Assembly (NCBI GenBank): GCA_965215265.1 | Contig: OZ244048.1 | Coordinates: 4,288,001-4,352,000 of the forward strand | Source of the DNA: Candidatus Poribacteria bacterium | GTDB taxonomy: Bacteria > Poribacteria > WGA-4E > WGA-3G | Direction: 5' to 3' | DNA length: 64,000 nt | Part shown: piece after piece, positions 23,497 through 49,757 of the stretch | Position numbering within the stretch: position 1 is the stretch's first letter | Layout: the number at the start of each line of letters is the position of its first letter | The notes under the pieces: model-generated | What the model was told of the DNA's origin: nothing | Database searches by the model: none | Seen by the model: only the letters and a program-made list of their open reading frames with translations | Translations under genes and position numbers: made by a program

Positions 23497-23593
23497 ATCA
23501 AATGTTTAGATTCATTACCTAGAAAGCTGTTTGATTCCTATAGATACGTTCTGCAGCTTTACCATCAAATGTTTAGATTCATTACCTAGAAAG
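23497..23593. CRISPR. Single-spacer repeat-spacer-repeat unit in a family A element core
   Basis: ATCAAATGTTTAGATTCATTACCTAGAAAG at 23497-23526 and 23564-23593 (identical, period 67); family A arm follows to ~23660. Confidence 0.6.
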
Positions 23594-24153
23594 GCTCCGA
23601 CGAGATTTTCACGGTAATTAACTGAACATAGAGCAGTATAGGGCTTAAATATACAAAAAAATGATCCAGCTAGACCCTGCCGCTGCAACGTAGTTTCAAG
23701 AGCAAGGCTCGCATGAGAACGTGCTTTGGCCGGTGGCATCGCTAAACCTGTTTTATGCGTTCTTCTTTAGCATCTCTCTCATCCCATTTTTGAAGAGCGA
23801 GACGAAGTAACTCAAAGCGTAAAAAAAGATGGAACTTTTTGGTAGTACGGACAGTACAGGTTTGTAACATTTAAAGCAACTTTTTCTGAATTTTAAATCA
23901 GAAAATCGGGTATAATAGTTACAAGGAACTGGAAAAGCTCCATACTTTTAAACCCTTGTTAGAGGATAATAAACCTAAAAACCGTTTGTTTCACTGTCGT
24001 TTATCAGCATTTTTGCCATAACCCTCTGTGTATCGCTAACTTGTAACTATAAAGTTTAAAAGTGATGTCAACTCGCGCATTGAGGCGAGCCGGACCAGTA
24101 ATCAGGCAGTATTTATCTTGTGTATCTCAACACACCCGATAAGGAAGGAAAAA

Positions 24154-30525: not shown

Positions 30526-30691
30526 GTTTCGATTCCAAATTGGTGCGATTAAAAGCAAACTAACCACCACGGTGTGGGTATCGCTTTAGAATCTTATTTC
30601 GATTCCAAATTGGTGCGATTACAAGCTTTCCAGATTGTTATTGTTGGCTCTGTTTCGTCAAGTTTCGATTCCAAATTGGTGCGATTAAAAG
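30526..30691 (-). CRISPR. Orphan CRISPR array B (type I-B-like 30-bp repeat, 3 repeats)
   Basis: GTTTCGATTCCAAATTGGTGCGATTAAAAG at 30526, 30596 (2 mismatches) and 30662; spacers of 40 and 36 bp; the minus strand ends in ATCGAAAC. Confidence 0.9.
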
Positions 30692-30730: not shown

Positions 30731-31408
30731 TCACTTTTGATGTTTTATAGAGTAACAAATTCGACAAGGGTCATAGTCCTTCTCGGCTTTGTCGAGTAAG
30801 ATTGCAAACTTCTCGGTAGCATACTTCCGCAGAAAATCACAATCATAGGTATGATACTTTTCGCCTGTCCGCGTGATATAGACAACTGGTTCCGGTGGTG
30901 GCTTACGCCATAAAAGAAAAACAGACACACAAGAAATAAGAAAAGCAAGCGCAAAAGCCAACGCAATCCGTTTCCACCAGCGCACAGCTTTCCGTCCTCG
31001 CAGTAAATTAACCTCACTTTGTTCAAATATAGGCTTCCAGTTTTCAACACTTTGTTCAAAAGTTTCCCTATTGATTAACGCAAACCAGTTGTTATACTTA
31101 TTCTCGCAAAACTCCCAATGCTGGGGATCCGTGCCGACGGCGAGAACACCATACCGTGTGTTAGTAGCACTCATATAACTTTTCAACTGTGCTCTCGCTT
31201 GTGCTAGTGGGATGGGGAGGGGTAATTTCTTGCACTCCGCAATCGCGACAAAGTATCCTTTTTCATCTTTGATGGGCTGATGGAGAACAACATCCGCGAT
31301 GCCGTGTTGCGTGCCGAACGAGACGTCACACTGCTGTGCTATTGAAAATTGCGGGAATTTTTTAGTGAAATAGGTTTTGACTGCCTGTTCAACTATGGGT
31401 TCTTGCAT
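30731..31408 (-). CDS. HsdR N-terminal-like PD-(D/E)XK nuclease with a TM helix and a C-terminal Zn-binding (Ada-like) domain
   Basis: ADVV...AECK...QLKSY motif; TM WWKRIALAFALAFLISCVSVFLLW; VYITRTGEKYH..DC...PC.IC. Confidence 0.75.
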   Translation of the reverse strand: MQEPIVEQAVKTYFTKKFPQFSIAQQCDVSFGTQHGIADVVLHQPIKDEKGYFVAIAECKKLPLPIPLAQARAQLKSYMSATNTRYGVLAVGTDPQHWEFCENKYNNWFALINRETFEQSVENWKPIFEQSEVNLLRGRKAVRWWKRIALAFALAFLISCVSVFLLWRKPPPEPVVYITRTGEKYHTYDCDFLRKYATEKFAILLDKAEKDYDPCRICYSIKHQK

Positions 31409-31417
31409 TGTCCCTAC

Positions 31418-31777
31418 CTAACCTGCCAAGCGAGGGGCTTTGAAGGGTTTTTTTTATGTTTCATGCTATAATGTATTTAAATTTCTAACCTGCCAAGCGA
31501 GGGGCTTTGAAGGGTGTTCGCCCGTACAACAGGCTACTGTAAAGGTAAAGGCTAACCTGCCAAGCGAGGGGCTTTGAAGGCTCGCTGAAGAGAGTGGCAA
31601 TGTTCCGATGAGCAAACTAACCTGCCAAGCGAGGGGCTTTGAAGGTGTGTGGCAGGGGCATCAAGGGGCTCCTGTTGGCTATACTAACCTGCCAAGCGAG
31701 GGGCTTTGAAGGTCCCCATCTCCCAAGCCCGCCAGACAATCTGTTTTCCTAACCTGCCAAGCGAGGGGCTTTGAAGG
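31418..31777. CRISPR. Orphan CRISPR array A (29-bp repeat, 6 identical repeats, 5 spacers)
   Basis: CTAACCTGCCAAGCGAGGGGCTTTGAAGG at 31418, 31485, 31552, 31617, 31684 and 31749; unique spacers of 38, 38, 36, 38 and 36 bp. Confidence 0.93.
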
Positions 31778-31799
31778 GCTATCTAAAACTGAGATATAT

Positions 31800-31829
31800 A
31801 GTATACCACATCCTTATACAGCTTGTCAA
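31800..31829 (-). promoter_or_regulatory. Sigma-70 promoter/leader firing into array A
   Basis: Minus strand TTGACA-18-TATACT with TGTG extended -10, in an AT-rich flank. Confidence 0.65.
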
Positions 31830-32151
31830 GTTAATTTTTATTTTTTTTACATTGCTGTCGATCTCCTGTTAGGTCTATTTCCTAGGAGGTCGATGACCTT
31901 TGATACGGTAAAGGGTTATCCGTTGTTTTCTGTCAAAATGGCAAGGAACTTGGGGCACAATATCCTCGTTTCACGGCGACCGACAGCAGTTTGTAAACCG
32001 CACGCTATGGCACCGGGCTTGTCTATAGTAGAGTTGCGGCTAGATTCGGGAAGCACCGGATATCCTCAAGTACTTGCTCATCATCCCAAATTTTGTATTA
32101 AATTCACGTTAATTGATGCCAGAGTTTGTAGGGACGAGATTACCTCTCCGA

Positions 32152-43344: not shown

Positions 43345-43837
43345 ATGTATAATGTTTTCACGGTTTTAATTGTTTTGCTAATAGCGTCTCTACTTCTTGG
43401 GGTAGCTGCTCCTACACAACCTGCAGATGCACAAGCACAAGGATGGGGCGAGGCCGGCAAGTGGCTATGGAGAGGCATAAAGTGGATTGGTGCTGTCATC
43501 GCGGCTAAGGAAATTGAAGATGCTTGGGATGGTGACGATGGCTGTTACGATTCTTGTAGTTGCTGGTTATGCGTCAGATGCTTTTATTTCGGAGACGAGT
43601 GACGATAGCTGTTACGATTCTTGTAGTTGTAGTCCGTCTAGCCCCTGTCATTCAGGATGTGATTGTGAGGAGTCTTATTCCTACACTTGTAATGATTGCG
43701 GTTATAACTGGTCAGGAACGGACTACGATGAATATATGGAGGTTTCTGGTAATCATTCTTGTACTGAAAGTGATTATTCAGATTGGTGCACTTTCTGCGA
43801 GGAAGAGCATTATAACTGTGGTGGGTATGGATGGTGA
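43345..43837 (+). pseudogene. Secreted Cys/acid-rich small protein frameshifted by a 67-bp insertion
   Basis: AGGAGG RBS and signal peptide; deleting 67 bp joins the two frames into one 141-aa ORF. Confidence 0.75.
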
Positions 43838-44471: not shown

Positions 44472-44747
44472 ATGAATCGGGTTCCTATTGTGTATTTTGT
44501 AGGTTTTTTTGCGGGTGTGTTTGGTGCTATTACTCGTCAACTTACCAATCACTGGTCCGCTTTTCTTATTTGGGTTTTCCTGGGTTTAGTGATATCGTAT
44601 CTGTTTAATAAGGATGTATTCAGGCTACTCCCACATAACCCTAAACCTGCCCCTAGACCTGCCCGAGGGGCTTATGCGGAATATCTGGCACGCAAACAGG
44701 AGAAGAAAAAGTTGAAAGCGTTGAACCGGCAGCAGAAGAAAAGATGA
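44472..44747 (+). CDS. Small membrane protein with a basic tail
   Basis: GGAG RBS, two TMs, Lys/Arg-rich C-terminus. Confidence 0.5.
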   Translation: MNRVPIVYFVGFFAGVFGAITRQLTNHWSAFLIWVFLGLVISYLFNKDVFRLLPHNPKPAPRPARGAYAEYLARKQEKKKLKALNRQQKKR

Positions 44748-44925
44748 AGACGGGTTTGCAAAATATCGGTGACATCTTCGGAGAACCGAGCGCCCTATTC
44801 ATGCGTCTGACATCGGCTTCTTGGTAGCGTCAGCATCTTAACTTTATCAAATTTCCAAGTGAGGAGTTCGCTACCCAAGAGTTGCAGCATCTCTTTGATA
44901 TACCCCAAAAGTAAAGAGATACCTA

Positions 44926-45153
44926 TTTTTGTATACTAGAGCCCCACAACGGCTGATGCATTGTTAATCACTGTGTACATCTCGTCAGAGCCTTTCTAGG
45001 TTATGAATCATAGCATAGAAACGGTAGAGAAACAGCCTGGTTCGTCCAACTTAAGTCTCTTTCTAGGTTATGAATCATAGCATAGAAACCCTCCTACGAG
45101 ATTTATGCAAGGGTTATCAAAACATCAATCAGTATTGGGCTTCAGTATACAAA
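44926..45153. repeat. Complete family A element carrying a spacer-like insert
   Basis: Both arms present; the central core is duplicated around 36 bp. Confidence 0.85.
44992..45089. CRISPR. Single-spacer repeat-spacer-repeat unit
   Basis: CTTTCTAGGTTATGAATCATAGCATAGAAAC (31 bp) identical at 44992-45022 and 45059-45089; 36-bp insert at 45023-45058. Confidence 0.65.
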
Positions 45154-45767
45154 CAGTCATCACTGTACTACAATTATAAAGATTTTTATATGAAAACTCT
45201 TCAGAATCAGGCGTTTATTAGCACTCCAATCCTAAATTTCATGCTACATCCGTTCCTTATAGAGGTTTCTACCACCACCAAAACGCCCACCCCCACTTTT
45301 TGCGCGCAGGAGGAAGCCTCCGCCACTGCTAAATGTGCCAAAAATACAGTAATCCGGCGAGGATACCTAAAATCATGAGTTTCCACCATTCAGAATTCAT
45401 TTTGTTCGCCTTTATAGTAGAATAGAAACCTGCCAGTAACTGGTCGTGCACCAAGTCCTAATCGATCCACTTTTTACTTATTCTTTCGACCTCTTTTGTG
45501 AATTTTACCATCAATATAATACATGGATACGCTCTAATGCTGCAGTGCGATGCCAACTTCCCGCGCGTTGCCTCGGGAGAAATTTAAAGACTATACATAC
45601 CGAAGGCCGCTCCTTATCTTTCATCCCATTAGCAACCCGGCTATTAGTAGAAATAGGCATGCACCCAGGGGCGATGTAAAGGAACTGCAGATGTGTTTCA
45701 TCATTTTCATCGCTGTATTGTAAGGGCGGATGGTTTCATCCGCCCACATGAACTTATAGAAAAGAAA

Positions 45768-49383: not shown

Positions 49384-49757
49384 TTTCGTCTACTGCAGCA
49401 CAACGAAGGCAGTTGTAATGCTAAACCCTAGCACAAATCTCGTCGGAGGGTTCCGATGCTACGAATCTAAACAGAAAAAACCTCCGACGAGATTTACATC
49501 GAAGTCAACAAAAACATAAACTTTTATCGTACTGAAATATACGAAAACACAAATCTCGTTCTTTCGTCTATAGGAGCCCAATAAAGGCTGCTGCTTTTTC
49601 GTATACAGGAGCCCAATGCCAGTTGCCGCTATATTAAATCCTTTACAAATCTCGCCGGAGCCTTCTTATGCTATGAATCTAAACACCAGGCGGCTCCGAC
49701 GAGATTTACACAGTGATTAACAATACATCAGCCTTTATCGGGCTGCAGTAGACGAAC
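49384..49757. repeat. Cluster of family A elements (two full copies and fragments)
   Basis: AAATCTCGTCGGAG-33 bp-CTCCGACGAGATTTAC cores at ~49436-49498 and ~49647-49710. Confidence 0.85.

Follow-up and report, generated by a model that had tools for sequence, protein, structure and literature searches.

A solitary repeat-spacer-repeat unit in a palindromic element of a Poribacteria genome: a probable off-target CRISPR spacer integration

Introduction

How does a single spacer-sized insert, flanked by a perfect duplication, come to lie in the centre of a dispersed palindrome? This question is raised by a locus at positions 44926-45153 of a 64,000-nt stretch of the genome of a Candidatus Poribacteria bacterium (assembly GCA_965215265.1, contig OZ244048.1, positions 4,288,001 to 4,352,000; the whole stretch is hereafter called the window). 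There the core of a palindromic element is duplicated around a 36-nt insert, much as a repeat is duplicated around a spacer in CRISPR arrays. An initial annotation of the window regarded the element as a unit accepted by the adaptation machinery and as a mobile or dispersed seed of single-spacer mini-arrays.

The origin of new CRISPR arrays and repeat families is an open question. The only experimental answer comes from over-expression in E. coli, and the natural evidence has been described as circumstantial. Off-target integration by Cas1-Cas2 that creates new repeat-spacer-repeat units was described in E. coli over-producing the Cas1-Cas2 of its type I-E system (Nivala, Shipman and Church 2018, Nat Microbiol 3:310). 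As that study is cited elsewhere, it detected rarer off-target events from which de novo CRISPR loci may result, found that such events spawn novel arrays, and had for natural cases "circumstantial evidence in two other species".

We conclude, with a probability of roughly 0.87, that the unit in the window is one non-canonical (off-target, or "neo-CRISPR") spacer integration, made by the cell's own type I-B Cas4-Cas1b-Cas2 into the central loop of a palindrome that resembles a miniature inverted-repeat transposable element (MITE). The evidence comes from the geometry of the unit, the source of its spacer, the resident cas genes, a genome-wide class of similar units, their junctions and an empty site.

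Results

A perfect duplication in the core of a palindrome

The unit is built from an exact 31-nt direct repeat that begins CTTTC and ends GAAAC, with its copies at window positions 44992-45022 and 45059-45089, 67 nt from start to start, and a 36-nt insert at 45023-45058. Two or more matches of this repeat occurred in 0 of 100 shuffles. The source DNA of the insert carries a C both before and after the 36-mer; therefore, the unit boundaries are ambiguous by one base per side, and a repeat of 29-31 nt with an insert of 36-38 nt is equally compatible. Around the unit lies an imperfect palindrome whose 94-nt arms (44928-45021 and 45060-45153) are 72% complementary. The 228-bp element folds into one long hairpin (z = -6.5). 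Its parts are as follows, a slash marking a junction here and below.

44926-45153, no strand: MITE-like palindromic element (a copy of family A), host of the unit, with inverted arms, a hairpin, about 300 matches to its terminal motif genome-wide, and contiguous flanks at two loci of the relative G004
44977-44990, plus strand: left terminal motif of the core region, ACATCTCGTCAGAG, whose final GAG plus the following C mimic the canonical leader end (AGC/)
44992-45022, plus strand: R1, one of the two copies of the 31-nt MITE core (a pseudo-repeat), on the leader-proximal side
45023-45058, plus strand: captured 36-nt spacer, identical to genome positions 3743468-3743503, where its source has the 5' flank CTC
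45059-45089, plus strand: R2, the second core copy, followed by C and then by CTCCTACGAG
45091-45104, minus strand: right terminal motif (AAATCTCGTAGGAG on the minus strand), which supplies the /CCTCC flank of the spacer-side junction

The 31-nt repeat has only these two copies in the window, and the rest of the genome holds one 23-nt truncated piece of it, at 268265. A truncated half copy of the unit's own element lies at genome 268198-268287; it is 99% identical and spans the left arm plus 23 nt at the start of the core.

What kind of element is the host? Its terminal motif, AAATCTCGTCGGAG, has 24 matches in the window with at most 2 mismatches, where 0.38 are expected, and 299 forward plus 276 reverse matches in the 4.83-Mb single-contig genome. 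Family A elements are small, non-coding and numerous and carry terminal inverted repeats, as MITEs do. Moreover, the flanks of the unit's host element join directly at the two G004 loci, and the element is thus an insertion; no clear target-site duplication of it could be read. A reverse partner lies within 400 nt of 136 forward motif matches, and the inner distances cluster at 25 (n = 11), 33 (n = 28), 40 (n = 37) and 41 (n = 18). Family A elements are modular and often nested, and 10 isolated direct-repeat pairs of period 61 and variable length (for example at genome 1038255, 3835621 and 4232168 and at window 49500-49640) are tandem arm modules of the family.

These results uphold several descriptive points of the initial annotation. 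The inner 31 bp are indeed exactly duplicated around a unique 36-bp insert, and the six copies said to have a single 33-bp core are real, five belonging to the 33-nt class and the sixth (window 63419) having a degenerate right motif. The annotation also considered the CTTTC and GAAAC ends of the core to be CRISPR-like; they do resemble the CTTTT...CGAAAC ends of the resident repeat described below, and the GAGC that precedes the core is similar to the leader end ATAGC.

The spacer comes from the cell's own chromosome

The unit's 36-mer matches the genome at 36 of 36 positions about 590 kb away, inside an open reading frame (ORF) of 1117 aa (L025:1223-4576, genome 3741722-3745075). The same stretch is present, with 1-6 mismatches and within conserved coding sequence, in the orthologous genes at all 8 relatives' loci that were fetched. 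The spacer is therefore self-derived: it matches perfectly a chromosomal ORF that is conserved in relatives. The source protein has no Pfam or NCBIfam match. Relatives of the ORF are encoded by 120 of 200 candidate stretches in genome_contigs; most of the 80 that were kept are titled as Candidatus Poribacteria metagenome-assembled genomes and a few as uncultured bacterium. The protein is conserved across the lineage, often with two paralogues per genome.

The resident type I-B system has the geometry of the unit

A Cas1-type explanation asks for a Cas1, and two cas1 genes are present in the genome. Of these, the first (522674-523519) closes a locus of composite make-up, in the order cas6, csm1-5 and a csx1-like gene (type III-A), then cas8b1/cst1, cas7/cst2, cas5, cas3, cas4, cas1b and cas2 (type I-B). 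The locus lies directly upstream of array A1, with a leader carrying a promoter-like TTGACA-17-TATACT site in between, and its adaptation genes match Cas1b (E = 5.7e-136), Cas2 (1.5e-14) and Cas4 (4.2e-26). A1 comprises 170 repeats of 30 nt, CTTTTAATCGCACCAATTTGGAATCGAAAC, with ends CTTTT...CGAAAC. Its spacers are mostly of 36 nt (65), 37 nt (39), 38 nt (33) and 35 nt (15), within a range of 33-40. The only degenerate A1 repeat is the last one, which places the leader on the cas side.

Array A2 consists of 28 repeats, likewise of 30 nt, with a spacer mode of 36, and its upstream sequence ends in ATAGC, as A1's does. A1 (genome 530608) and A2 (623045) have one spacer in common, 36 of 37 nt being identical, which fits the supply of both arrays by a single adaptation module. 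The second (Cas4/Cas1-fusion-like) cas1 stands next to array A3, whose repeats measure 36 nt and whose spacers measure 35-43 nt. The geometry of the unit, 31 + 36 or equally 30 + 37, is that of A1 and A2. The core repeat resembles the A1 repeat at the ends only (CTTT...GAAAC).

Solitary units form a genome-wide class

Is the unit one of a kind? A scan of the whole genome, with single mismatches allowed and all periods from 40 to 120 covered, gave 89 isolated direct-repeat pairs, 25 of them at period 65-68. For repeat lengths of 27-32, there were 16 pairs in periods 65-68 vs 14 in the other 77 periods together (Poisson P = 1.5e-16). An exact-match version of the scan gave the same 65-68 peak, and no comparable peak appeared at the geometry of A3 and the second cas1 (36-nt repeat). 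After removal of canonical arrays and of coding leucine-rich-repeat tandems, which also have period 66, 15 clean units remained. They have exact repeats of 28-32 nt (mode 30-31) and inserts of 34-39 nt, mostly 36-37, that do not derive from adjacent DNA. The repeats show no relation to one another or to the canonical repeats, each insert is different, and most of the units are intergenic.

Clean units, genome starts: 555347, 926414, 1680511, 2322504, 2364330, 2522976, 2628602, 3283207, 3283305, 3416224, 4311497, 4332992 (the unit in question), 4569546, 4616764, 4725427
Weaker units (n = 5), genome starts: 445078, 3265837, 4190756, 2606135, 4331532

Family A is strongly over-represented among the sites. 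Five of its motif pairs have inner distances of 97-106. Three of these hold an internal duplication around an insert, and the other two contain a different nested repeat and no duplication.

Window 44992 (genome 4332992): filled core, the unit in question; inner distance 100, repeat 31, insert 36
Genome 2322488: filled core; repeat 31, insert 37
Genome 926387: filled core; repeat 29, insert 36

Subtracting repeat plus insert from the three filled cores leaves 33, 34 and 38, which are normal core lengths. A further filled copy, at window 23497, lies in a half element, and with it family A cores hold 4 of the 15 clean units (4332992, 2322504, 926414 and 4311497). The cores amount to 4098 bp, or 0.085% of the genome (binomial P = 7e-10), and under a generous share of 0.54%, with 45 bp credited per motif match, P is 1e-6. 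Two more units (555347 and 1680511) are found in the arms, at the same 31-nt segment. The remaining 9 of the 15 are outside family A and have unrelated repeats. Every filled family A copy is single-copy and has its own distinct spacer.

Two solitary units stand only 2 bp apart at genome 3283207-3283402, with different 30- and 31-nt repeats and TTAGC before the first. These neighbours (3283207 and 3283305) would be two successive off-target integrations side by side.

Self-derived spacers are in excess at these sites. Near-full-length self matches outside arrays were found for 4 of 20 spacers at neo-sites (the 15 units plus the five spacers of A4, a small array of the window described below) vs 0 of 195 in A1 and A2 (Fisher P = 5.6e-5); A3 had 0 of 64. 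This excess fits units that do not feed interference and so escape selection against autoimmunity. In a search of the own genome at E up to 0.01, 12 of the 15 clean spacers had no match. The spacers of 2322504 and 4311497 had no exact match in viral_contigs, and that of 2322504 had none in 30 relatives. The 5' flanks of the protospacers are CTC for the unit in question, CCC for 3283305, CCC for 3265837 and CCG for an A4 spacer, and they are suggestive of a C-rich protospacer adjacent motif (PAM).

Junctions resemble those of canonical arrays

Do the integration sites have anything in common? We split each unit into two half-sites (n = 30, symmetrised), so that no choice of orientation enters. 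The half-site consensus is A at -3 (19/30), G at -2 (17/30) and G or C at -1 (25/30), followed by G at +1 (18/30), T at +2 (17/30) and T at +3 (16/30). Canonical junctions read gatagc/CTTTTA on the leader side and, on the bottom strand, /GTTTCG on the spacer side; those of the window unit read cagagc/CTTTCT and aggagg/GTTTCT.

Empty and filled states

An integration should have an empty counterpart, and comparison of relatives provided one. At unit 4725427, the same-genus genome G001 has, between conserved flanks, a single 30-nt homologue (25/30 identical) to which R1 and R2 both align, and it lacks the 36-nt insert, which makes this a clean orthologous empty site. Contigs of runs X5 (records 6 and 7) and X9 (record 29, covering 44992-45088) cross the R1-spacer and spacer-R2 junctions; the filled state of the window unit is therefore genuine and not confined to one data set. 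The contrast of empty with filled states is thus clear at 4725427 and hinted at for the window unit; at five other units, the intergenic DNA of five relatives could not be aligned.

Several observations weigh against our interpretation. The hint of an empty allele at the window unit is a 112-nt contig of run X8 that joins 44991 to 45059, skipping exactly 67 bases with no other differences, and overlaps by 30 letters a contig of the unique right flank, which in X8 differs at 11 of 689 places. It may represent the empty allele, but the joint is one contig of depth 5.85 whose shorter side has 29 letters (likeness threshold 88), it falls below the bridging criterion, and such joints can arise from repeats or from other organisms. 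Units 4616764, 2522976, 2628602, 3283207/3283305 and 4569546 have no alignable intergenic DNA in the five relatives, and no empty site was seen there. An exact-motif pattern run over 111 family genomes found no filled element copy elsewhere; the pattern matched two places in G004 and misses the window copy itself because the terminal motifs of that copy carry mismatches.

The junctions and flanks have weak points too. In 10 of the 15 units the repeat is directly followed by CC, as against an expectation of about 2 (P = 1.5e-6), but the orientation of several units was picked partly by this feature before it was counted, a circularity that the symmetrised half-site count avoids. No shared mid-repeat motif, as required in Haloarcula type I-B, is visible in the 15 off-target repeats. 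The unit's CTC flank differs from the CCN of the other three protospacers. Moreover, these flanks cannot be compared with a known PAM, since a megablast of the whole of A1 against phage and plasmid collections found no protospacer and the canonical arrays therefore yield no PAM. A search with A1 in the 111 family genomes gave array-to-array matches only, because the relatives have the A1 repeat too. Finally, the support for integrase activity at the site is sequence evidence.

Other arrays and solitary units in the window

Other features of this kind lie in the window.

23497-23593, minus strand: second solitary unit (genome 4311497), in a half copy of family A; repeat 30 nt, spacer 37 nt; the minus-strand reading is GGAGC/CTTTCTAGG...
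30526-30691, minus strand: leaderless mini-array of three canonical 30-nt A1 repeats and two spacers
31418-31777, minus strand: array A4, with five spacers of 36-38 nt between six copies of a 29-nt repeat
31778-32008, minus strand: copy of the last 233 nt of the A1 leader, with promoter-like TTGACA/TATACT, abutting A4 (94.85% identity over 233 nt)
43532-43629, plus strand: low-confidence unit 4331532, repeat 31 nt with 1 mismatch, insert 36 nt, which may be a degenerate coding tandem repeat

A4 is probably a grown-up neo-CRISPR array. None of 30 relatives has its repeat, in contrast to the A1 repeat, which is spread widely through the family, and one of A4's spacers matches the own chromosome at 37 of 38 positions. 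On the simplest reading, the copied leader would have recruited the integrase to the adjoining 29-30 nt and so founded the array. A4 lies directly between the leader copy and the start of an ORF at 30731-31408 with a weak HSDR_N_2 match.

Mini-arrays of 2-4 canonical A1 repeats are also dispersed at genome 23953, 2273093, 3923450 and 4751058, and A1 leader fragments lie at two of them (24053-24114 and 4751219-4751292). About 300 bp from array A2 (genome 622351-624177) is a 602-aa ORF (L004:8242-10050, minus strand; genome about 620241-622050) with an IscB match (NF040563, E = 3.4e-115) and a weak Cas9d match. It looks like a CRISPR-associated IscB whose array shares its geometry and leader end (ATAGC) with the type I-B array. 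In the type III-A module, residues ~49-111 of the Csm2 ORF (L003:4192-4905) match Csp and residues 153-234 match Csm2; with the ORF start as predicted, Csm2 appears to be joined, by fusion or by read-through, to a cold-shock (CspA-like) domain.

Alternative explanations

Could the palindromic family be more than an accidental target? Its core and arms carry what look like leader-end and repeat-end mimics (AGC/...AAC/CCT), spaced as the ruler of the integrase requires, and each transposition might plant an integration-competent pseudo-repeat, making the genome a natural nursery of arrays. We hold this extension to be unlikely. Were it true, the single-spacer units, the adjacent pair 3283207/3283305 and the five-spacer A4 beside its copied leader would be the birth of a repeat caught at successive stages. 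Alternatively, the units could be harmless sinks for self-derived prespacers.

A different possibility is a functional single-spacer mini-array that a mobile element carries and spreads, its core being processed by Cas6 into a CRISPR RNA for defence, regulation or inter-element conflict. The shared CTTT...GAAAC ends of core and resident repeat, the dispersed canonical mini-arrays, some with leader fragments, and the recurrence of the family as host (its cores hold 4 of the 15 units and its arms 2) speak for it. Yet no two filled copies share a spacer and each occurs only once, which leaves no spread after filling, and 9 of 15 units are outside the family with unrelated repeats. The spacer is a perfect copy of a conserved gene of the cell itself, and self-derived spacers are over-represented at such sites. 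An Rfam search of window 44500-45500 at E up to 1 gave no match, so that no Rfam CRISPR repeat family fits the core, whereas the A1 repeat weakly matches one. No copy of the A1 leader lies at the unit (all genome copies were catalogued), where the AGC/ junction bases alone match. Promoter-like sites are not enriched there and none is upstream of R1, which leaves no promoter-bearing leader. As to serial acquisition, the unit has a single spacer only. We regard a functional mini-array as improbable, and the single-spacer unit is probably inert for interference. Thus, the initial idea of a leader-repeat-inverted-leader unit accepted by the adaptation machinery stands as far as acceptance goes and falls as regards a dedicated unit with a leader. 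Nor is a mobile or dispersed seed of mini-arrays supported, because the filled copies are unique and non-MITE sites were hit as well.

A rearrangement without CRISPR involvement, by replication slippage, partial tandem duplication or hairpin-loop break repair that captured a stray 36-nt fragment, is more improbable still. Long palindromes are fragile, a break would fall in the loop, and the captured DNA is chromosomal, which speaks for it. A tandem duplication, on the other hand, gives a repeat at least as long as the period, not 31 within 67, and the insert has its source 590 kb off rather than in adjacent DNA. The geometry of 30-31 plus 36-37 recurs at 15 unrelated sites and equals that of the resident arrays, and the junctions share a motif matching canonical junctions. 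Slippage in particular was rejected, given a repeat that falls short of the period and an insert of distant origin.

Very improbable, too, is a target-site duplication by another integrase or transposase, such as a casposase or the second, Cas4/Cas1-fusion-like Cas1, or by a tiny mobile element. A second cas1 does exist, beside A3. The inserts are all different, however, which leaves no common mobile element, and the duplication of 30-31 nt is not the 36-37 of A3, at whose geometry there is no peak. Casposons duplicate about 14-15 bp of their target, as against 30-31 nt here, and the unit lacks casposon features in other respects: the 36-nt insert has no gene, and both cas1 genes of the genome lie beside arrays.

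An assembly artefact, conceivable in a genome rich in near-identical palindromic repeats, is hardly likely, as contigs of the independent runs X5 and X9 cross both junctions.

Discussion

The best explanation of the unit is thus the Cas1-Cas2-type duplication around an insert that the initial annotation had in mind: type I-B cas1, cas2 and cas4 are present, and the geometry matches the arrays. How would the integration have proceeded? We infer that the agent was Cas1b-Cas2, loaded with a 36-37-nt prespacer cut from the cell's own chromosome. The complex would have attacked the top strand at GAGC/C, a mimic of the canonical leader end ATAGC/C, and then the bottom strand about 30 nt away at GAAAC/CCTCC, which imitates CGAAAC/ at the canonical repeat's end. 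The 30-31 nt between the two attack points would then have been duplicated by gap repair. The MITE core is a preferred landing pad, probably because the GGAG...CTCC stem sets two good half-sites, with the consensus AG(G or C)/(G or C)TT, at ruler distance. We see the element as a target hit by accident, though favoured, rather than as a demonstrated mobile seed.

Why do these units matter? This genome is a natural data set of about 15 single-spacer events with base-level junctions, from which a half-site preference of a type I-B system can be measured. It also offers a mobile palindrome as a recurrent target, an excess of self-derived spacers and a probable next stage, in which a copied leader gives rise to an array with a new repeat. 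There is a practical warning as well: array finders and studies linking spacers to hosts can pick up such units, whose spacers need not be from invaders.

The architecture seemed at first to be undescribed. The mechanism is already known, and off-target neo-CRISPR units were described by Nivala et al. 2018. Novel here are the scale on which it occurs in nature, the half-site preference of a type I-B system, the MITE as hot spot and an array probably founded by a leader. Among the matches listed by our literature searches, no paper joined MITEs with Cas1 spacer integration, and none on Poribacteria CRISPR spacers dealt with off-target units.

How does the unit compare with known systems? Like array A1, it combines a repeat of 30 nt with a spacer of 36-37 nt, CTTT...GAAAC ends and AGC before the first repeat. 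Unlike A1, it has one spacer, a MITE core as its repeat and no AT-rich leader with a promoter; its spacer is a perfect self match, and none of the 195 canonical spacers is. Viruses and mobile elements reportedly carry mini-arrays or solitary repeat units with the host's canonical repeat, processable by host Cas proteins and targeting competitors (Medvedeva 2019, Faure 2019). Common to both cases is a repeat-spacer-repeat unit, with few spacers or a single one, on a mobile element; here, by contrast, the repeat is the element's own core and the spacer is from a host gene. The small dispersed repeats of cyanobacteria (Elhai 2008) reportedly nest in minitransposons, their inserts being repeated families of 21-27 nt without long target duplications. 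Short sequences inserted in the centres of MITE-like palindromes are common to both cases, whereas the inserts here are unique 36-37-mers with 30-nt duplications; we rejected such repeats as an explanation, since the inserts are unique.

Two experimental systems come closest. For the type I-B system of Haloarcula hispanica, a ruler-based duplication of 30 bp from the leader-repeat junction is described, with variants of 29-33 bp when the ruler is disturbed (PMC4872114). The repeats of 28-32 nt found here, with their mode of 30-31, agree with such a ruler. Unlike in H. hispanica as described there, the 15 off-target repeats have no mid-repeat motif and the junction bases carry the signal. With the neo-CRISPR units of Nivala et al. 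2018, as that study is cited, our units share a spacer-sized insert, a flanking duplication of non-CRISPR host DNA equal in length to the resident repeat, the possibility of self-derived spacers and the capacity to seed arrays. Those units arose in E. coli over-producing a type I-E machinery, whereas the 15 clean events in this one genome are attributed to a natural type I-B module that includes Cas4. Unlike in that study, moreover, a palindromic MITE serves here as a recurrent landing pad, and an array of five spacers stands beside a copied leader.

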